This document shows, piece after piece, positions 436 to 57,475 of a DNA stretch of 64,000 nt. The DNA comes from a virus. The notes under the pieces were generated by a model. It was not told the DNA's origin, did not search any database, and saw nothing but the letters and a program-made list of their open reading frames with translations. Position 1 is the stretch's first letter. The number at the start of each line of letters is the position of its first letter. The stretch covers positions 32,001 to 96,000 of the IMG/VR virus record IMGVR_UViG_3300005436_000501. One strand, given 5' to 3'. Position numbers and translations under genes: made by a program.

Positions 436-800
436 GGGGTGCTCTTCGCGGTCTTCTGGCGTTCGCGGGCGGCGCGGCGCTTGAGTGCGCGGCGCTCGTC
501 CTCGCTCATCCCGCCCCACACACCCGCGTCCTGGCCGGACTCCAGAGCCCACTGCAAGCACTGGTCGATCACGTCACAGCGGCGGCACACCGCCTTCGCG
601 TCCTCGATCTGCAGCAGTGCCGGCCCGGTGTTCCCGATCGGGAAGAACAGCTCCGGGTCCTCATCGCGGCACGCGGCGCGGTGGCGCCAGTCCCGGTCGC
701 CCGCCGGGTCCGGGTTGGTGAACCCGGGGCGCAGCACGGCCGCCACACGCCGGGCGGTGACCGCGGACGCCATCGCCGCGAGACCCTTCGCCTGCGTCAC
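432..800 (-). CDS. whiB: WhiB-family Fe-S transcription factor, WhiB1/WblE-like, with N-terminal extension
   Basis: DWRHRAACRDEDPELFFPIGNTGPALLQIEDAKAVCRRC..CLQWALESGQDAGVWGGMSEDERR: four Cys plus GVWGG. Confidence 0.95.
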   Translation of the reverse strand: MTQAKGLAAMASAVTARRVAAVLRPGFTNPDPAGDRDWRHRAACRDEDPELFFPIGNTGPALLQIEDAKAVCRRCDVIDQCLQWALESGQDAGVWGGMSEDERRALKRRAARERQKTAKSTP

Positions 801-1375
801 GACGCACCGCCGGTCGCGTGGCCGCGCAGCAGCTCGGCCGTGAGGTCCTGAATCTCGGCCGCCGCCTCGTGCTGCGCGCGGGACTTCACGCACGCCGGGT
901 CGGTGCACTCCGCCTCCGGGCCCGGGTGGGTCGGCTCGTCCTGTCCGGGCGCCGGGTGCGGGCCGACCGCGCGCTGGCGGCGCACCACGTCCAGCAGCGA
1001 CTCGGGCGCTGCTGGCGCGGGCTTGATCTCGATGTCGTCCTGGTCGCGGCCCCGCCACCACACCGGGAACGGTGAGACGCGCACCTCGAAGTCGGCGGTG
1101 TCCGGCGCCCACAACTCGTCGTTCTGCCACGTGGACGCGATCTCGGCGAGTACGCACCGGTCCAGGGCCGGGCCGGGGCCGACCAGGTTCCCGTTGTCGT
1201 CGTACTCGTCGGCGTCGCGGCGGCACGCGGGCACGTCGCCGATCGGCAGCACCGTCAGGTCGCGGGTGTCGTGGGGGCAGAGGATCTCGGCGACGAGGGC
1301 GCGGTCCTGCAGGCGCACGCGGGCGGTGTGCCCGTCGTCGAGCCATTCGGTGTCGGACTCGGTGGGGACGGTCAT
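797..1375 (-). CDS. Hypothetical phage protein
   Basis: ATG after GGAG, coupled overlaps at both ends, acidic globular composition. Confidence 0.7.
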   Translation of the reverse strand: MTVPTESDTEWLDDGHTARVRLQDRALVAEILCPHDTRDLTVLPIGDVPACRRDADEYDDNGNLVGPGPALDRCVLAEIASTWQNDELWAPDTADFEVRVSPFPVWWRGRDQDDIEIKPAPAAPESLLDVVRRQRAVGPHPAPGQDEPTHPGPEAECTDPACVKSRAQHEAAAEIQDLTAELLRGHATGGAS

Positions 1376-1593: not shown

Positions 1594-2003
1594 GGGGTCG
1601 CCGTCGCGGGGATCTCGAGTTGACCCGGGACCGGCTCCTGCGGCTCGCCGTCCTCGGGCAGGTCGTCGTTGGCGTCCCCGATCCAGTCCAGGCCGGAGTT
1701 CAGCGCCTCGGACACGATGCGGGCCATTCGCGCGGCCAGGATCGGCCCGGCCGGGTGGTCCGACTCCTGTGCGACCCGCAGCACCGCGGCGAGGGTGAAG
1801 GTGAACACGTTCCCCGCGACCAGACCCTCGGCGGCGTCGCGGATGGCGCGCTCGTGCGGGGGAGTCGGCGCGGCGGCGGGGACGACGAACTGGGCGACGT
1901 AGGGCTGGCTCTGGTCGTACATCCGGTTCGACAGGTTCACGAGGCGGTGGCGCACCTTCGTGACGCCCGGGGCGGCGGCCTGGGTGGTCGTGGTGTCGGT
2001 CAC
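1590..2003 (-). CDS. Hypothetical phage protein
   Basis: GTG start with GAGGAG RBS; GTGA overlaps. Confidence 0.7.
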   Translation of the reverse strand: MTDTTTTQAAAPGVTKVRHRLVNLSNRMYDQSQPYVAQFVVPAAAPTPPHERAIRDAAEGLVAGNVFTFTLAAVLRVAQESDHPAGPILAARMARIVSEALNSGLDWIGDANDDLPEDGEPQEPVPGQLEIPATATP

Positions 2004-31998: not shown

Positions 31999-32498
31999 CG
32001 GGCGGCTCCCGTCGGGGGTGTGAAGCGGTCGAGGATCTGCTGGATCTGCGCGAGGATCCGCAGGGCGGCCTGGTCCTGGACGTGGAGGTGGTTGTCTTGC
32101 GCCTGGAGGTGGCGTTGGATCTCGGCCGCCTCGTGCAGGACGGCTTCCGCGTCTTTATATGTGGCTTCCGAGCGGGCGTCAGCGGCCTTCGCCTGGATAT
32201 TCTGGCCTACGATCACAATTGGCAGGAGAATCAGCTGTAAAAAATTGCTGCTAATCCAGGCAACTATGATCGTCATATTATGGGAGGAGATCGCAGATGG
32301 GAGGCTCAGCAGGGCGACGGCGGTGAAAACATATGCCGCCCACATCGTTCCAACCGAGATGGTTATCAACAACCCGAGTCGGGCGTTGAGTCTTCCAAGC
32401 ACGCCGCTCGACCTGGCGCGATGGTCCTCCACACGCACCGGCCCCCGAGCCTTCCGCTCTTCGCGATACGGGTGCGGGACGTGCTCGTAGAGGCTCAA
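31995..32498 (-). CDS. DUF1003-family membrane protein
   Basis: VGTMWAAYVF..AWISSNFLQLILLPIVIVGQN..AADARSEATYKDAE; TTG start with GGAG. Confidence 0.75.
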   Translation of the reverse strand: MSLYEHVPHPYREERKARGPVRVEDHRARSSGVLGRLNARLGLLITISVGTMWAAYVFTAVALLSLPSAISSHNMTIIVAWISSNFLQLILLPIVIVGQNIQAKAADARSEATYKDAEAVLHEAAEIQRHLQAQDNHLHVQDQAALRILAQIQQILDRFTPPTGAAR

Positions 32499-48620: not shown

Positions 48621-49979
48621 CTATCCGGCGGAAACGCCCGAGATGCAGCCGTTCCAGCCGGGTGCGTAGCATAGGTGAGTACCGAACCAGTAGCTCGACG
48701 ACTCGTACGCGAACTGCGTCACGGGCCAGTCGATCCCCATGAAGTCCTGCACGTTGCAGATCGCCCACACGTTGCTGACCTGCGAGTCGGGGATCGGCAG
48801 GGTGTCCGAGATGATCGGACACACGCCCTGCGGCAGCCACGGCGAGACTTCCATCTCGACGTGCTTGCCCGTGGTCTCGTTCACGATCGCGACGGCGACC
48901 GAGCCGAGCGTGACCCCGGCGACCTGGTCCTGGGTGACCTGCAGGATGTAGTTGTTGGACTCGCCGGTCTTGAGCGTCGCGGACAGCTGCTTGCGGTCGG
49001 CGCCGTTGAACATGACCCGGTCGGGGTCGGCCTTGACCGAGTTGTAGAGGCTGGCGAACGCGGTCTGGAACTCGCCGCCGGGGGTCGCGGTGCCGAACGC
49101 CGAGTTCAACTTGACGTTGTAGCCGGACGAGGTGCCCATCGTCCAGGCGAGGATCCCGTCGTACCCGGCGGAGTACGCGGAGGTGTCGGCGGTGGGCGGG
49201 TTCGCTCCCGCCACCGGGATCGCGCCCTGCAGCACGATGCCGGTACCGCCAGCGCCGCCGCCGTTGACGGACTGGTTCGGGAACCGGCCGTACAGGAAGA
49301 ACGCGGAGTTCGCCGGCTGGGAGGCTCCCGTCCCGATGTACACCTTGTATCCCAGCGCCGCCGGGACGTCGGTCAGGCGCAGCACCACGTTGTGGCCCGC
49401 GGTCGGCGCGATCGTGGCGACGGTGGAGACGACGGACTCGCCGAACGCGCCCGCGTCGGAGGTGACGTACACGTAGATGTTCGTGGTGTACCCGGTCAGG
49501 GCGGCCTGCCCGGTGCCGAGGGTGTTGTCCACCAGCGACGTGCCGGTGGGCGCGGCGAGAGCGCCGGCGTACCCGGACGCGGTGCCGCGGCCCATGATCA
49601 GCATCCGCTCCTCCATCAGCTTGCTGGCGTACAGCAGGCTGGTGCGCGAGAGCTGGCGGATGTCCTGATACCCCTGGCCAGCATATTGGGCGGACCAGGT
49701 GACCTCGTCGGACATCGAGAACTGCGAGTGCGGCAGCACGACGTCGTAACCGGCGTACGCGATCTTCGGGCCGCGCGCGTAGTACAGCGAGTTGCTCGCG
49801 CCCGACGGGGCGAAGTTCGTCTGGCTGCTGTCGGCGATACCGGGGTGGATGTTGCCGACGCCGCCGGTGCCGGAGCCGGTGATCCCGGAGATCACCTTGA
49901 ACCGGTGCGAGGTGCCGAAGCCCTTGATCCGCGGCGTGCGGTTGCTGACCGGCGTCGGACGGGGAGCGAGGAACTTTGC
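48621..49979 (-). CDS. Major capsid protein, exon 2
   Basis: Open frame from AKFLAPRPTPVSNR to the stop; capsid-like C-terminus ..SPWLPQG..YAPGWNG.ISG. Confidence 0.88.
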   Translation of the reverse strand, partial: AKFLAPRPTPVSNRTPRIKGFGTSHRFKVISGITGSGTGGVGNIHPGIADSSQTNFAPSGASNSLYYARGPKIAYAGYDVVLPHSQFSMSDEVTWSAQYAGQGYQDIRQLSRTSLLYASKLMEERMLIMGRGTASGYAGALAAPTGTSLVDNTLGTGQAALTGYTTNIYVYVTSDAGAFGESVVSTVATIAPTAGHNVVLRLTDVPAALGYKVYIGTGASQPANSAFFLYGRFPNQSVNGGGAGGTGIVLQGAIPVAGANPPTADTSAYSAGYDGILAWTMGTSSGYNVKLNSAFGTATPGGEFQTAFASLYNSVKADPDRVMFNGADRKQLSATLKTGESNNYILQVTQDQVAGVTLGSVAVAIVNETTGKHVEMEVSPWLPQGVCPIISDTLPIPDSQVSNVWAICNVQDFMGIDWPVTQFAYESSSYWFGTHLCYAPGWNGCISGVSAG

Positions 49980-51034
49980 CAGATTTGTTACCGAGCCCCG
50001 TCGGCTCGGGCCGCTTCATTTCTGCGCGGCTCTGCATGTCTCCATGCAGCTCGGACTATGCCACCACCTGCTGCTTCCGGTGATCCTTCCACCGGATGTG
50101 GACCGGATTGGACTGAGGGTTCTTCCTCATCCAAACCCCGTAGCACTTCTGGGTGCAGAACTTCTTCTCGTAGGTCCGGTTCGTCCGGTGCTCGACGAAG
50201 ACATTTCCGCAGCCGGTGCAGGTGTGCTCGATCTGAGCACCCTTCCAGCTTGCGTTGTCCTTGCCGCGCCCACTCCGACGGATGTCAGCGATCGGATCCG
50301 TGTCGGGTGTCAGTCCAACGGCGTCCGCGACCGACCGGACGCAGGCGTCCGGGTCAGCGTTGATCTGGGTTCCGTTGAACCGGAAGACCTTGTAGCCCAC
50401 ATCGGCGAGTTCGGCGTCGCGCACTGCGTCGAGCGCCTTGCGACGCTCGAGTCGGTGCGACAGTCCGTCGGCCTCGATGATCACGGGAGCCTGAAGAAGC
50501 TCGATATCGACGACATAGCGGCCGAGGTGGCATCGCTGTGTCGTGAACGAGAGTCCTGCACGTTTGAGTGCTCCATGGAGCAGCTTTTCCAGCGGAGAGT
50601 CCGCCGACGAGCCTCGCAGCTCATCGAATCGCTTAAGCGGACTCACTCGGTGCGCTTCCTTGAACTCCGGAGTGTTGCATGCGGCCCTGTGTGCAGCCTT
50701 GCGCTCGTCACTCCACACCCACGTTCGCCCAGTCATGGGCTTGCGGGCGATACCAAGGCGCTTCATCGCGTTCTCTACCGGCTTGCGTGAGCAGCCGTAC
50801 AGTTCCGCGACAGCGCGTTGCGGCCCGAGTCGGTCGTAATCCGCCTGGAGGTTGCTCCAGTCCAACAGGTGCCCCGCATCTAGTCTCTACGGACTCGCCC
50901 CTACGAACGGGGATTGCCTCGGCGTTTTCCACATGACCTGGACGCTCTAAGTATATTGCGCCCAGCGAAGGACTTTCACCGATACAGCGGGGTTCTCAAC
51001 TGCGCATCACTGCGCAGCGGCCCTACGAAAACGA
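49980..51034 (-). ncRNA. Group I self-splicing intron in the major capsid gene
   Basis: 5' exon ends in U, intron ends in G; P3 CCCCGC/GCGGGG, R element GTAGAGACTAGA, S element GCATAGTCCGA (P7 GACTA/TAGTC), P8 CACCTGTTG/CAGCAGGTG around the ORF, P9 hairpins. Confidence 0.92.
50056..50865 (-). CDS. Intron-encoded DUF559/Vsr-like endonuclease (putative homing endonuclease)
   Basis: SPLEKLL..GRYVVDI..IIEADGLSH..D..RD..L..GYKVFRF; N-terminal HTH, C-terminal CxxC..FC..C finger. Confidence 0.88.
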   Translation of the reverse strand: MDWSNLQADYDRLGPQRAVAELYGCSRKPVENAMKRLGIARKPMTGRTWVWSDERKAAHRAACNTPEFKEAHRVSPLKRFDELRGSSADSPLEKLLHGALKRAGLSFTTQRCHLGRYVVDIELLQAPVIIEADGLSHRLERRKALDAVRDAELADVGYKVFRFNGTQINADPDACVRSVADAVGLTPDTDPIADIRRSGRGKDNASWKGAQIEHTCTGCGNVFVEHRTNRTYEKKFCTQKCYGVWMRKNPQSNPVHIRWKDHRKQQVVA

Positions 51035-51421
51035 AGGCGCCTCGAGGTCGAACGCGACGAGGCCAGTTCCAACGGGGGACGTGAGGTTGATGTCCTTGAC
51101 CAGGTCCGGCTGCTGCCCCTTGAGGGCGTCCAGCGCCGCGGCCACCGACGCGACGGCGTCCGGGGACATCGACTTGACCAGGTCCGGCGAGCCGAGCGCC
51201 TTCTGCAGGTACTCGATCGCGTTGGTCGGGCGCGGGCTGAAGTCGATCGGGTGGCCGGCCTTGAAGCTGGTGACGATCTCCTCGCGGGTCAGTTCCCGCT
51301 CGGGAACGCACTGGATCGACTTGACCAGTTCGTCGAAGCGGATGGAGACCTCGGCCTTGGACAGCTTCGCGGACTCCGGGGACTCACCGAACATGAGCTC
51401 GACGTTCGTGGGCAGAGCCAT
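51035..51421 (-). CDS. Major capsid protein, exon 1
   Basis: RBS GGAAGGAG; ends GLVAFDLEAP at the splice site. Confidence 0.88.
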
Positions 51422-51445
51422 GGGCCCTGCTCCTTCCATGCGAAA

Positions 51446-53611: not shown

Positions 53612-56600
53612 TCAGCCGTCCGTCGCGCCGACGCCGGCGCGGTCCGCCGGGGCGATCTCCGCGAGCGAAACGGTCACCGGCATGGGCGCGCACCGGCACC
53701 GAGTATGTCCAGGTGGTGATAAATCGCCGCTCTGGAAAGCCGCTCCGAGCGGCACGGCGCCCTCGGCCTCGTTCGGTTCGCAGACGCTCGAACACACGCG
53801 ATCATCATCAGCCGAGGCCCAGTAGGTGGCCTCAATGCCGTTGGCCCGGTACGTGTCCATCGACGCGGCGCTCGTTGCTCGCGCCAGTTCCGTGATCGCG
53901 ACCGCTTCGGCCCACGCGGGGTCATCGAGGATGCCGCGCAGTACCCCGGCCAGGGTGGCGGCCGAGTCTCCGCGCGCCAGGGCGTCGGACAGCGCCTTGG
54001 CCAGCTTGTCCAGGCGGTTGCTGGCGATCGACTTGATCGTGATCCCGGCCCGGTCGAGCAACAGCGCTAGTCCGTTGCGGCCGTTCTCGTCCAGGACCAG
54101 CCGGGCGGCGTCCACGTCTCCCGGGACCCACCGCGACCAGTCCACGCGCGCGCTGCCGGTCAGGACGGCGGTCGCGGACAGGTCCCCGATGACGTAGCCC
54201 TCGGTCCACAGCCCCACGATCAGGCCAGCGAGTACCACGGTCAGGTCCACACCACGTTCGGCGAGCCAGGAAGCGGGGTCCTGGGTGTAAGTGTCGGGGC
54301 CGGGCGGGTCGTCGGTGAAGTCGTTGGGCAGGTCGGGTTCGTCGGCCTTTCCGAGCATGGCGATGCGGTGCGCGATCCACGCCTCGGCAAGTGCTCGGGC
54401 ATTCAGGGCGCCGCGCATGGCTGTGCGGATGCGCGGCTTCCAGGCGGCGGCGGTCTGCTTGTCTCGGTCCCAGCCCGGCCAGTGCGGCCGGTCCGGGTCA
54501 CCGGCTTTTGGGACTTTGCCGACACCGCCCGCGGGCGCGAACACGATGCGCGGGTCGGCGAACATGTCGTCGGGCGCGTCGGCTTTGGTCAGGATCCGGG
54601 CGTGGAAGGCGCGGCCGGGCTTGGGGTTGCGGCGCGCCCAGTTGCGATAGGCGGCGATCTCCGCCTTGACGGACTGCGTGGTGGCTGGCGTCGGCGCGCC
54701 CTCGGACGCGTCCGACTCTTCGCCGTCACCGTCGTCGCCCTGGTCGTCCTCGAACTGGTCGGGCACGCCGTCCGCGTTGTCGTCCTTGTTCGGGGGCGAC
54801 TCCAGGGGCGTAACCGTCTCCCCTGCGGGCGCCAGCTTCGACGCGCCCTCCAGGAAGATCACGCCGCGGCTGGTCACCACGATCGGCATGTCCGCCTCGG
54901 GGAACGCATACCTCGGCAACCCGAGCCGGTCGCGGTCCTCGTTGTACGTCATCCGCGCGCTCTTCACGCGGGTGTCGGCAACCGCGTCGGCCGCCGCTTC
55001 GTCCTCGTCCTCGAGTCCGAGGATCTTGAATTCGAGTTCGCCGGGCATCCCCAGGTGCCGCCGGGAGATCCCGGTGACCAGTCCCTGGATCCACCGGTAC
55101 GTCGGCATGGTGGCGTTGCGGTCCTTGATGTCCGCCTGACCCTCGTGGTACCCGCTGGAGCCTAGACCGCCGGTCTCGGTGAAGTTGAGCTCCGCGATGG
55201 TCGTGGCGAAGTGCGCGGCGAGCTGCTTGAGCAGGAACAGGTCGTACTCGGGCTTGTAGCGCTCGGCGACGTCCGCGTGGGATTCGAGCTCGAACCCGGG
55301 CGGCAGGATCCGCATCCGGTGCCGCTCGAGCGTCTGCCCGGACCAGGCGTCGTTCAGGGCGGTCTCGTACTCCAGGACCTGCTGCGGCGTCCATGAACTG
55401 GTGGCGTTGTTGCGCAGCAGCCCGGCGGGCACGGTGCCGTCGGTGAACTCGGCGCGGATCCAGGCGCGCCGGCGCAGCCACACGTCGAGGTCCTCGAGGC
55501 ACTGCTCGACCGCGCTGAAGCCGTAGAGGGTCTCGGTGCGCACGTTGCGCCGCTTGTAGATCAGGGTGTCGGGCGCGTAGCCGTTGATGACCTTGCCCTG
55601 GTCGTCCACGTCTGCGACGTACTCGCCGCGCGGAAAGCCCCACAGGATCTGCTGGTACGCCGGGTTGGGCGGCAGGGGCTTGCCGCCGCGGTAGTCCCGC
55701 AGCACCTTAATGGTGTTGCCGCACCAGGCCGGCTTGCCGTTGCGCCGCACGTACAACACCTCGTTCGGCACCGACACGCAGAACACGTCGCCGTCATACG
55801 GCACCCCCTCGACACGCCACGTGCGAGCTTGCGTGTTCGACAGTCGGACCGAATACTTTGGCCGCATGTTCCCCGAGTGGATAACACGTCCATCACGCAT
55901 CACCGAGTCCGCGGTGGCCACGCTACGACTCACGTTGGCGCACTTGCCGATCTTCTGCGCGATCTCCTGTAGATCGTCAGCCATGCGGGGGCTGCACGTC
56001 GTGATGGTCTGACGATTCCCGTCGTAGCAGCCATCCCCCAGCATGTAGAAACGCCAGAAGATCTCAAGCTGGCGCGCAGACATGTTCTTGACGATGTCCG
56101 GGACATGCTTCTCGTGCGCTTTCCCGAACTGCGCAAGGTAGGAGTGGAGGCACTTCCGGCTGATGACGAACGACTTGCCGGTATGGCATACCTCGCGGCC
56201 GAAGATCCGCATGAGCAGGTCGCGGAACGGGCCGTATCCCTTCGACGCGGGGTCTTGCGTGATGCAGACGGCGTCCTTCTTCGCGCCGGTAACGCAGCCC
56301 TCGGAGAGGTACGCCCCCATGAAGGCCGCGAAGTCGTCGCCGCTGCACTCGAACGGCAGCGACGTGGTACGTCCAGAGGCGGCCAGTTTGAACTCGGCCA
56401 GGTCGGCGCCGATCCAGTGCGATGTCATCGGGATCTTCGACGCTTGGCCATTGCCGAATTCAGCCAACTCGGCTGCCGTGACAATTGCCTCGCCGCGATC
56501 CTGCCAGCGGGAGCCGCCCAGCGCGCGGGGCTTGGCGGTCACGAGCATCCGATGATTGCCCGTGACGAGGACATCCAGGGACTTCGACGTGAAGTGGTAG

Positions 56601-57475
56601 AGGTCGCCCTTGTGCGGGGCGCGGTGGAAGTACGTGGCCTGCTGCCACTCGAAGTCGTGCGTCTTGGGGTTGCGCGTCGCGAAGTCATCGTCGACGCGGG
56701 TGTCCGCGAAGCGGAGCCAGCCGCGTCGCGTCAAGACTTCAGTGTCGTCGGAGTAGCAGGACCCGTCCAATATCTCTAAAGCGTACAGGTCGCCGCCGTA
56801 CGTGCGCCTGGGATAGATCGCTAGGGCGTCCAACACGAGGTGCTCTTCGAGGAGTTTTCCGATCCAGTCGGTCCAGTCCTCGTCCTGGCCGGGGTCGGGC
56901 TTCTCCCAGAACGCGGAGCAGCGGGCGATCTCGGGTCCGAGGCGCCTGCGCAGGTCCGCCTCGACGTCGGCACGCGCCGAGGAGGGACTGTCGGCCTGCG
57001 CTTTCGCAACGGCCGACTTGGTGATGGTGATCGCCCATTCGAGGGTGGAGATCTCGTCCTTGCGGATCTGGATACAGCGCCGCGGGATCCCGCCGGCCGC
57101 GGCGGCGTCGCGCAGCACCTTCCACGGCACGAGCCGGTCGGTGACGCCGGGCAGGTTCGTGGAGACGGGGTATTCGCCGAAGCGGGGTTCGGGCCGGCCG
57201 GAGTCGCGCCGTACGGGGTCGATCGCGGCGGGGATCAGGGCGAGGCCGGGTCCGAACGCGACCTGCGGGTCCAGGCGTGGCAGCGGGTTGAAGCCGCCGC
57301 TGGTGGCCGGGGCGGTGTTCACGGCGGCGAGCAGCGCGGCGACCTGCGTTCCGGTGTAGGTGGTCGCTCCGGGTCCGACACCAGGCACCATAGCCTTGGT
57401 CATTTCGGCTTCGGTGCTGCGGCGCACCTGGTAGTGCTGGTTGCCGCCCTTGCGGTTGCGGTTGCGGCGACTCAC
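53612..57475 (-). CDS. Portal protein (intein-containing) fused to a MuF/gp7-like head morphogenesis domain
   Basis: LDG(S|T)IK, YGFSAVE, FTDGTVPAGLL, TYNEDR..LG portal motifs; C-terminal A.TE.ARA..W..DDRVC..C..N..PPGHTRCRC. Confidence 0.92.
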   Translation of the reverse strand: MSRRNRNRKGGNQHYQVRRSTEAEMTKAMVPGVGPGATTYTGTQVAALLAAVNTAPATSGGFNPLPRLDPQVAFGPGLALIPAAIDPVRRDSGRPEPRFGEYPVSTNLPGVTDRLVPWKVLRDAAAAGGIPRRCIQIRKDEISTLEWAITITKSAVAKAQADSPSSARADVEADLRRRLGPEIARCSAFWEKPDPGQDEDWTDWIGKLLEEHLVLDALAIYPRRTYGGDLYALEILDGSCYSDDTEVLTRRGWLRFADTRVDDDFATRNPKTHDFEWQQATYFHRAPHKGDLYHFTSKSLDVLVTGNHRMLVTAKPRALGGSRWQDRGEAIVTAAELAEFGNGQASKIPMTSHWIGADLAEFKLAASGRTTSLPFECSGDDFAAFMGAYLSEGCVTGAKKDAVCITQDPASKGYGPFRDLLMRIFGREVCHTGKSFVISRKCLHSYLAQFGKAHEKHVPDIVKNMSARQLEIFWRFYMLGDGCYDGNRQTITTCSPRMADDLQEIAQKIGKCANVSRSVATADSVMRDGRVIHSGNMRPKYSVRLSNTQARTWRVEGVPYDGDVFCVSVPNEVLYVRRNGKPAWCGNTIKVLRDYRGGKPLPPNPAYQQILWGFPRGEYVADVDDQGKVINGYAPDTLIYKRRNVRTETLYGFSAVEQCLEDLDVWLRRRAWIRAEFTDGTVPAGLLRNNATSSWTPQQVLEYETALNDAWSGQTLERHRMRILPPGFELESHADVAERYKPEYDLFLLKQLAAHFATTIAELNFTETGGLGSSGYHEGQADIKDRNATMPTYRWIQGLVTGISRRHLGMPGELEFKILGLEDEDEAAADAVADTRVKSARMTYNEDRDRLGLPRYAFPEADMPIVVTSRGVIFLEGASKLAPAGETVTPLESPPNKDDNADGVPDQFEDDQGDDGDGEESDASEGAPTPATTQSVKAEIAAYRNWARRNPKPGRAFHARILTKADAPDDMFADPRIVFAPAGGVGKVPKAGDPDRPHWPGWDRDKQTAAAWKPRIRTAMRGALNARALAEAWIAHRIAMLGKADEPDLPNDFTDDPPGPDTYTQDPASWLAERGVDLTVVLAGLIVGLWTEGYVIGDLSATAVLTGSARVDWSRWVPGDVDAARLVLDENGRNGLALLLDRAGITIKSIASNRLDKLAKALSDALARGDSAATLAGVLRGILDDPAWAEAVAITELARATSAASMDTYRANGIEATYWASADDDRVCSSVCEPNEAEGAVPLGAAFQSGDLSPPGHTRCRCAPMPVTVSLAEIAPADRAGVGATDG
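55715..56758 (-). mobile_element. 348-aa intein with LAGLIDADG (DOD) homing endonuclease
   Basis: Block A CYSDDTEVLTRRGW, block B VTGNHRM, FMGAYLSEG and FYMLGDG, block F YDGDVFCVSVP, block G YVRRNGKPAWCGN followed by T. Confidence 0.95.

Follow-up and report, generated by a model that had tools for sequence, protein, structure and literature searches.

The window analysed here is a stretch of 64,000 nucleotides (nt), positions 32,001 to 96,000 of the IMG/VR virus record IMGVR_UViG_3300005436_000501, and every window feature described below lies on its minus strand (-). It is part of a 127-kb provirus record with a completeness of 97% (CheckV), and its G+C content is 70.5%; the element is probably a temperate phage integrated in a high-GC actinobacterium, with a member of the Streptomycetaceae as host. 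One of its genes, likely the major capsid protein gene, is split by an insertion of 1055 nt at 49980..51034, which consists of 245 nt of ribozyme and an 810-nt open reading frame (ORF). Upstream lies exon 1 (51035..51421), which encodes 129 aa from MALPTNVE to FDLEAP; downstream lies exon 2 (48621..49979), which encodes 452 aa and the stop codon and starts with AKFLAPRPTP. The ORF (50056..50865, 269 aa) encodes a putative homing endonuclease with an N-terminal helical, helix-turn-helix (HTH)-like module, a nuclease domain of DUF559/Vsr fold at residues ~90-183 and a C-terminal CxxC...CxxxC module. The insertion is very probably a mobile group I intron.

The junction is defined at single-base level. 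Exon 1 ends in GAG GCG CCT, with its final T at 51035, exon 2 begins with GCA AAG TTC at 49979, and the last base of the insertion is the G at 49980. Joining the 129 codons of exon 1 to the 452 of exon 2 yields one frame of 581 aa. Taken without interpretation, the strand offers an ORF of 138 aa (51023-51439) ending in ...FDLEAPSFS*, the 269-aa ORF and then a long open frame running to 48621; the exon 1 frame runs only 12 nt into the insertion before a stop, and the endonuclease ORF lies in a different frame. At the protein level a one-base ambiguity exists: both splice sites shifted one base upstream (5') still encode Pro-Ala. The sites are placed at 51035/49979 because only that choice gives a U before the 5' site together with a G at the intron end. 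The exon ends, insertion limits and joined frame proposed in the initial annotation of this DNA are thus all borne out, and its expectation that gene callers fragment the capsid gene proved right: the gene is called as pieces of 138 aa and ~424-452 aa, accompanied by a "very-short-patch-repair endonuclease".

Homologs without the insertion are continuous at the junction. The closest of them, P0001, has 581 aa and 96% identity to exon 2; its sequence ...FDLEAPAKFLAPRPTP... is identical to the window across the junction. Exon 1 is colinear with P0001 and five other full-length homologs, and all six homologs examined continue through ...FDLEAP(A/S)K.... The colinearity across FDLEAP|AKF that the initial annotation had put forward holds in 28 of 30 related loci in viral contigs; of the other two, one (L010) carries an insertion and one (L013) lacks the junction. 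The L010 insertion measures 1060 nt, occupies exactly the same site and contains an ORF 74% identical to that of the window. The presence/absence polymorphism also appears in a soil metagenome (run X3), where an intron-less DNA contig that reaches over both exons skips 1131 positions and has 76 letters between, exactly 1055 nt fewer. Both exons remain open: comparison of the window with L010 gives a ratio of nonsynonymous to synonymous substitution (dN/dS) of 0.33 for exon 1 and 0.30 for exon 2, and no stop codons.

The pairing of the non-coding RNA supports a group I core with a P3/P7 pseudoknot, in which P8 would close the ORF as a loop. At the 5' end, GCCU (51038-51035), the last four bases of exon 1, would be the exon strand of P1; the P1 loop and internal guide follow at 51020..51034, and the guide GGGC (51023-51020) pairs with the exon GCCU, G 51023 wobbling with U 51035. 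P2 (51000..51017) is a hairpin, CUGCGCA/UGCGCAG, with a GUGA tetraloop. The P3 5' strand CCCCGC lies at 50987..50992. The segment 50919..50982 is assigned by pairing and folding to P4 (UCGGUG/CGCCGA), P5 (UCC/GGA) and a variable hairpin P5a (CUGGGCGC/GCGUCCAG), whose sequence and length vary between all lineages; pairing and alignment place P6 (GGC/GUC) and P6a (CCCC/GGGG) at 50892..50918. The next segment, 50872..50891, contains J6/7 CGUAGA, the P7 5' strand GACUA (50885-50881), J7/3 GAU and the P3 3' strand GCGGGG (50877-50872), in the layout of the RF00028 consensus AGACUA-AAc-P3'. The P8 5' strand CACCUGUUG (50863..50871) overlaps the start of the ORF; at the other end, 50054..50073 holds the P8 3' strand CAGCAGGUG (50073-50065), J8/7 GUGGCA and the P7 3' strand UAGUC (50058-50054). 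The 3' domain (49980..50053) comprises P9.0 (AG 50051-50050 with CU 49982-49981), P9 with a GAGA loop, P9.1 with the conserved loop GCAGAAAUGAA, P9.2, the tail UAACAAAUCU and the terminal G 49980.

Three helices had been located in the initial annotation, and each is found where it was predicted: P3 with 6/6 pairs, P7 with 5/5 and P8 with 9/9, one G.U included. The same is true of the ends of the ORF, whose TTG start (50865-50863) falls in the P8 5' strand and whose TAG stop (50058-50056) coincides with bases 1-3 of the P7 3' strand. From P1 and its extension through P9.2, the 16 helix segments listed are all completely paired in the window. The order and spacing of J6/7, AGACUA, a 3-nt J7/3, P3', P8...P8', a 6-nt J8/7, UAGUC and a GNRA-looped P9 are those of the RF00028 consensus. 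Each half folded alone is more stable than its dinucleotide shuffles (z -3.26 for the 5' half and -5.07 for the 3' half), and the minimum-energy folds of the halves recover P1, P2, P3, P4, P5, P5a, P6a, P9, P9.1 and P9.2.

This anatomy was tested for compensatory change across relatives of the intron. For the 5' half, nine sequences and 25 pairs (P2, P3, P4, P5, P6) give 222 cells, of which 99.1% hold standard pairs, and 9/25 pairs changed on both sides; none of 500 shuffles is as good on four of five measures, and 98/500 are on the fifth. In P2, 98.4% of cells are paired and both bases have changed in 6/7 pairs; P3 is paired in 100% of cells, and both bases have changed in 2/6 pairs. For the 3' half, seven sequences and 14 pairs (P9.0, P9, P9.1) give 99.0% pairing and 11/14 pairs changed on both sides, and 0/500 shuffles are as good on any of the five measures. 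When the partners are slid by 1-3 columns, pairing in the 5' half drops to 36-47%; covariation exceeds all slid controls in both halves, although derivation of the structure from the window sequence already gives it an advantage over these controls.

The two helices that bracket the ORF behave in the same way. Across 0.8-0.9 kb of ORF, the seven compared base pairs of P8 are kept in 7/7 complete copies while the bases vary: pair 3 alternates between C-G and U-A, and pair 7 appears as U.G, U-A, G-C and A-U. P7 has 5/5 pairs in 6/7 copies; in the L042 copy one change is compensatory and one pair is an A.C mismatch. A further intron, at the third site in L048 described below, stands outside the covariation counts; its helices, read by eye, include a P8 of 8 bp and a P7 in which one more pair is compensatory and the second pair is an A.G mismatch. 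Changes on both sides are seen in P2, P3, P6, P7, P8, P9.0, P9 and P9.1. In the direct comparison of the window with L010, the non-coding RNA is 81% identical in the 5' part (137/169 columns) and 90% in the 3' part (73/81 columns), and the ORF, at 77%, lies below both. The differences between these two copies in P2, P6a and P9.1 are compensatory as read, and the remainder fall mainly in the variable P5a.

Splice-site rules are likewise conserved in the family. The motif UAACAA followed by 4 nt and G ends 7/7 aligned complete copies and the L048 copy, regardless of insertion site, and all three insertion sites known in the family are preceded by CCU, matching the conserved GGG of the guide. At the window's own site, the proline codon before the junction is CCT in 4/4 intron-bearing alleles; in intron-less alleles it is CCT in 1/28 and CCG or CCC in 27/28. 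This bias fits either a requirement for the U.G pair or co-conversion of the exon flank with the intron.

Relatives of the intron were found with a degenerate P4-P6 pattern and an ORF profile in viral, metagenome and genome contigs. An exact 19-nt core motif returned nothing from metagenome or genome contigs, a search of viral contigs with the single endonuclease protein found no related loci, and blastn of the intron region gave no match among 50,697 phage records, which may not include phage LittleE, discussed below. The family so assembled has ten distinct ORF-bearing introns, eight of them complete, at three sites. Four occupy the window's site (the window, L010, L032 and L036). Five occupy a second site after ...ALANL: L037; L038, to which L045 is identical; L041; the group L042/L044/L047/L048; and L046. 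One occupies a third site, eight codons beyond that of the window, after ...PVYSP (L048 reverse strand, oriented 168-1291), so that L048 has two family introns within one capsid gene. These second and third sites lie in more distant capsid genes, and their putative junctions were placed from reading frames and the U/G rule.

The distribution appears independent of the host gene, as expected for a homing element. L032 also has this intron at the window's site, yet exon 1 of its capsid gene shares just 50% identity with that of the window; the homing-endonuclease gene (HEG) of L032 is 80% identical over the 173 aa present, and the 5' ribozyme part is, by eye, nearly identical to that of the window. 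In L036 the intron follows ...YDLEAP, at the corresponding position of a capsid gene that has diverged further still. The sporadic distribution (1/29 informative viral loci), together with a near-identical intron in so divergent a gene, points to a homing element. Some short database entries may record further cases: the capsid homolog P0027 (453 aa) starts exactly at the exon 2 boundary with MAKLLTPRPTP, and P0002, P0057 and P0062 start 10-15 residues into exon 2. These four may be exon 2 gene calls from further intron-bearing alleles, and entries such as P0027 may thus be fragments of intron-split genes.

A second kind of intron accompanies some of these copies. ORF-less group I introns of ~285 nt are present at ~670-950 (-) in L038, the same in L045, and at 1728-2000 (+) in L041. 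In these related capsid genes a 27-nt mini-exon (ILLQEMMLG) separates the HEG-bearing intron from the downstream ORF-less intron. The 3' part of the ORF-less intron gives a weak match to LOOT RNA (RF03000, E 0.031), probably by chance.

The ORF is, by profile match and structure model, a DUF559/Vsr-fold nuclease, in agreement with the initial annotation. Pfam assigns DUF559 (PF04480) with E 5.5e-14 and 52.4 bits against a cut-off of 20.6. In phmmer searches of PDB sequences at E<=10, the DUF559 structure 3hrl is the single match (E 0.0031), and the alignment spans VD...IEADG..H...D..R. An AlphaFold model built from eight family ORFs has a predicted local distance difference test score (pLDDT) of 77 overall and of 75-95 over the nuclease domain; in it, a helical module at the N-terminus is followed by a central alpha/beta nuclease and then by a C-terminal beta-hairpin/helix module with CxxC...CxxxC. 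Foldseek superposes it, by template modelling (TM) score to the target, on 3r3p, the I-Bth0305I catalytic domain (0.72-0.76), on 3hrl (0.74) and on the Vsr structures 1vsr (0.42) and 1cw0 (0.51). Higher-ranked Foldseek matches are apicomplexan mitoribosomal proteins that superpose poorly (root-mean-square deviation, rmsd, ~20 A). Matches to PHROG "HNH endonuclease" families are confined to residues 205-260, in the C-terminal Cys4 module (E 3.8e-5).

Conservation of the ORF fits a retained function. The putative catalytic residues E93, D120, E131, D133, H137 and D150 are invariant in 8/8 family ORFs, and between the window and L010 the ORF has a dN/dS of 0.26 and no stops, so by this measure it is under purifying selection. 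Its relatives come from environmental sequence: a search of 5.8 billion proteins with the endonuclease returned 69 relatives, all metagenomic and none from NCBI or UniRef, for which the JGI name is the repair endonuclease given above, and in tblastn against isolated phages no match exceeded 26% identity. Signs of decay appear in some ORFs of the family. That of L041 (886-1640) is frameshifted and broken into three frames. Where other family ORFs have ATG or TTG before DW(S/T/N)NL, L046 and L048 have CCG and GCC. The UAG is altered in L048, whose ORF therefore runs on through the P7 3' strand.

The host gene is likely, though not proven, to be a capsid gene: as judged from its sequence and setting, the product is probably the major capsid protein. 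The initial annotation had called it the major capsid gene, and three lines agree. Gene order runs from a portal-MuF fusion through a weak HK97 prohead-protease match (E 3.5e-4) to the intron-split gene; a distant tblastn match (24.6% identity, E 5e-13) is a protein that Alicyclobacillus phage MMB025 carries in the same gene order and that is annotated as "major head protein"; and the nearest language-model (Atlas) clusters are major capsid / SU10_MCP, with scores of 0.96-0.97. The product has no Pfam, NCBIfam or PDB sequence match. A profile search of PDB sequences gives only weak immunoglobulin-like matches at residues ~290-410 (E >= 0.013). The HK97-like fold is unconfirmed because the structure model failed: the AlphaFold model of the homolog P0001, built with 25 homologs, has a pLDDT of 45. 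Exon 2 as a query finds 2812 relatives in the protein search; among the 120 listed, lengths are mostly 570-581 aa, and the sources are metagenomes and genomes of Streptomyces, Kitasatospora and Actinacidiphila. The sole confidently modelled part of P0001, residues ~270-390 (equivalent to exon 2 residues ~140-260 of the window; pLDDT 66-90, mostly 82-90), is a beta-rich insertion overlapping the weak immunoglobulin-like matches and possibly a surface decoration domain.

The proposed mechanism begins at transcription, when the 245 nt of non-coding RNA would fold into the group I core. The guide GGGC would pair with the exon end GCCU, so that the U.G wobble falls on the 5' splice site, where an external guanosine would attack; the terminal G (49980) would then enter the P7 site, aided by P9.0, and the exons would be ligated. 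The ligated mRNA would be translated into the 581-aa protein through ...FDLEAP-AKFLAP.... The ORF product probably cuts intron-less capsid alleles near GAGGCxCCx|GCxAAG, and repair from the intron-bearing allele would copy the intron in, that is, homing. A G-rich stretch in the P3 3' strand may serve in ribosome binding; ribozyme folding and ORF translation should compete, because the TTG start lies in P8 and this possible ribosome-binding stretch in P3'. If the mechanism is right, production of the most abundant virion protein depends on efficient RNA self-splicing.

Several observations count against the group I reading and its parts. The most prominent concerns the covariance model of group I introns in Rfam. 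The initial annotation had set the absence of a covariance-model match beforehand as a refutation, and RF00028 indeed gives none on the window: neither at the gathering score nor, for the whole window, at E<=1. It is silent at E<=10 on 49900-51100 and on the 5' half or the 3' half alone, and it finds nothing on the whole 127-kb record. In the sister HEG-bearing introns of L038 and L037, the RF00028 match is limited to a 30-nt stretch of J8/7-P7'-P9 (20.1 and 20.7 bits, E 0.035 and 0.32). In the structure itself, inspection by eye gives no convincing P10 pairing, the second P7 pair is mismatched in both L042 (A.C) and L048 (A.G), and P4 and most of P3, P5 and P7 are evidentially silent because they are invariant (P4 nearly so); the derivation of the structure from the window sequence, mentioned above with the slid controls, counts on the same side. 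At the ORF, the window's TTG start is plausible but unproven, because in L046 and L048 the conserved MDWSNL start lacks all three of ATG, GTG and TTG. The case for the host gene as the major capsid gene is indirect, being built on gene order, one distant homolog with an annotation, and a lead from a language model. We infer the splicing chemistry, the homing and the nuclease target from sequence, which for splicing also weighs against the reading.

The silence of RF00028 is judged a limit of the model, because related introns approach its threshold and others match in part. The ORF-less intron 27 nt downstream of the L038 sister intron scores 49.9 bits against a cut-off of 50 (E 4e-11), and that of L041 scores 37.6 bits (E 2.7e-6); the sister introns give the partial match just described. 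The ORF-less introns share with the window's intron P9, P9.1 (loop GCAGAAAUGA), the GGUAACA tail, and the order and spacing from J6/7 to P9. The window differs from the model in its P3-P6 region (CUGUAUCGGUGAA...), where the model has a P4 of AAUUGCGGGAAA type, and in the 810-nt ORF that fills the P8 loop. The other Rfam matches at E<=10 are at chance level (SCARNA2, Hrs13, mir-72, DdR13), and no other intron family is among them. Confidence in the group I reading is lowered slightly. The claim that the capsid gene holds a group I intron with a DUF559/Vsr-like endonuclease is supported wherever it could be tested in silico.

Three other explanations compete with the mobile, self-splicing intron. 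The one that survives best, though it is improbable, accepts splicing and holds that the ORF product acts mainly as a maturase, or as a weapon that cuts the capsid genes of competitors without homing. Purifying selection on the ORF fits any retained function, and interference with a co-infecting phage is reported for one phage intron endonuclease (PMC11620839). Set against this, the sporadic distribution and the near-identical intron in a divergent gene are the classical homing signature, and the putative catalytic residues are invariant in every family ORF compared; these roles and homing are not mutually exclusive.

Less probable still is a dead or non-splicing relic, either a decayed intron or a free-standing endonuclease cassette, in a defective prophage that makes no full-length capsid protein. 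Such a relic would fit the silence of RF00028 and the decay seen in some relatives (the frameshifted L041 ORF and the L046 and L048 ORFs with no canonical start). Several features of a working intron speak against it. All core helices are intact in the window, and compensatory changes keep them paired across 9 and 7 diverged copies. Both exons are open and colinear, with dN/dS of 0.30-0.33 against the L010 allele. The codon that enables the wobble, CCT, is found in all four intron-bearing alleles and in one of 28 intron-less ones, and the provirus is 97% complete.

Removal or bypass by other means (as a group II intron or an intein, by translational bypassing, or through assembly of two unjoined capsid polypeptides) is barely credible, for beyond the silence of RF00028 nothing positive speaks for it and the Rfam searches name no other intron family, while the helix order P3...P7, P3', P8...P8', P7', the U/G rule and the J6/7-P7-J7/3-P3' layout are the group I consensus. 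Specific candidates were rejected in turn. A group II intron would require reverse transcriptase or group II domains, which were not found, and 245 nt of non-coding RNA are too short for it; an intein is rejected on two counts: 12 nt of insertion bring the exon 1 frame to a stop, and the ORF uses a different frame. An insertion sequence element was rejected on a reading of the sequence, which was the extent of the check for a transposase and terminal repeats.

Introns in capsid genes and Vsr-like intron endonucleases are already published. In mycobacteriophage LittleE (Cluster J) a probable group I intron that contains an endonuclease ORF interrupts the gene for the major capsid subunit, and splicing was demonstrated by reverse transcription-PCR and N-terminal protein sequencing across the junction; the authors call the intron type "unclear, most likely group I", and a capsid-gene intron in lactococcal phage Tuc2009 is cited in the same paper (Pope et al. 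2013, PMC3706429). LittleE resembles the window in being a temperate phage of a high-GC actinobacterium, in the U that ends exon 1, the G that ends the intron, and the endonuclease ORF inside. It differs in the ORF, which in LittleE is of HNH or LAGLIDADG-like type and runs on the opposite strand, and in the length of the intron, ~820 nt. The novelty implied by the initial annotation was therefore overstated, because PMC3706429 already documents splicing of an intron from the capsid gene of an actinobacteriophage; what stands as modestly new is the family context, with several sites in one capsid-gene family, members known from metagenomes only, and escape from Rfam.

The nearest precedent for the nuclease is I-Bth0305I, described as a Vsr-like "EDxHD" homing endonuclease of the recA group I intron of Bacillus phage 0305phi8-36, with a composite catalytic motif of E170, D196, H213 and D222 (Taylor et al. 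2011, PMC3239194). In the window ORF, E93, D120, H137 and D150 are candidates for such a motif. A published classification unites Vsr, DUF559, 3hrl and 3r3p in one PD-(D/E)XK group (Steczkiewicz et al. 2012, PMC3424549). The two enzymes share intron encoding, a Vsr-like catalytic domain and DNA-binding modules of HTH/NUMOD type, and the window model superposes on 3r3p (TM 0.72-0.76, rmsd 3.3-3.4 A, 97-99 columns). The differences are considerable: phmmer gives no sequence match between the window ORF and 3r3p at E<=10; the ORF of I-Bth0305I lies in P5 of a recA intron and that of the window in P8 of an intron in a probable capsid gene; and the nuclease domain is C-terminal there and central here, followed by the Cys4 module. 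Within the literature searched, no publication was found on a DUF559 endonuclease in a capsid-gene intron.

A broader proposal can be offered only tentatively, as something we consider possible but would not bet on: that these introns form an undescribed group I lineage missed by Rfam, with an endonuclease seen only in metagenomes, at three or more (at least three) CCU sites in one capsid-gene family of soil actinobacterial phages, some genes having two introns and some also an ORF-less intron at a fourth site, and that the nuclease is also a weapon against intron-less relatives. If its target is truly the gene for the most abundant virion protein, a weapon role in co-infection or in superinfection of lysogens would follow. 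For surveys, a well-formed group I intron that escapes RF00028 even as separate halves means that counts in high-GC phages relying on this model will be too low. The endonuclease family also offers natural variants of the Vsr fold with three capsid-gene target sites, useful for the study of DNA recognition by a rarer nuclease class.

A neighbouring head gene has a feature of its own. The portal-MuF fusion gene (53612-57475, -; an ORF of 1287 aa) matches the Pfam families Phage_portal (E 2.5e-7) and Phage_Mu_F (E 7.3e-7). Its residues ~230-590 appear to be an intein, which starts with CYSDDTEVL after ...LDGS and ends with ...AWCGN before TIKV; Pfam gave no intein or endonuclease family for it at E<=0.01. 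If this portal intein is real, two core head genes of the phage would need splicing, the capsid gene at the RNA level and the portal gene at the protein level.

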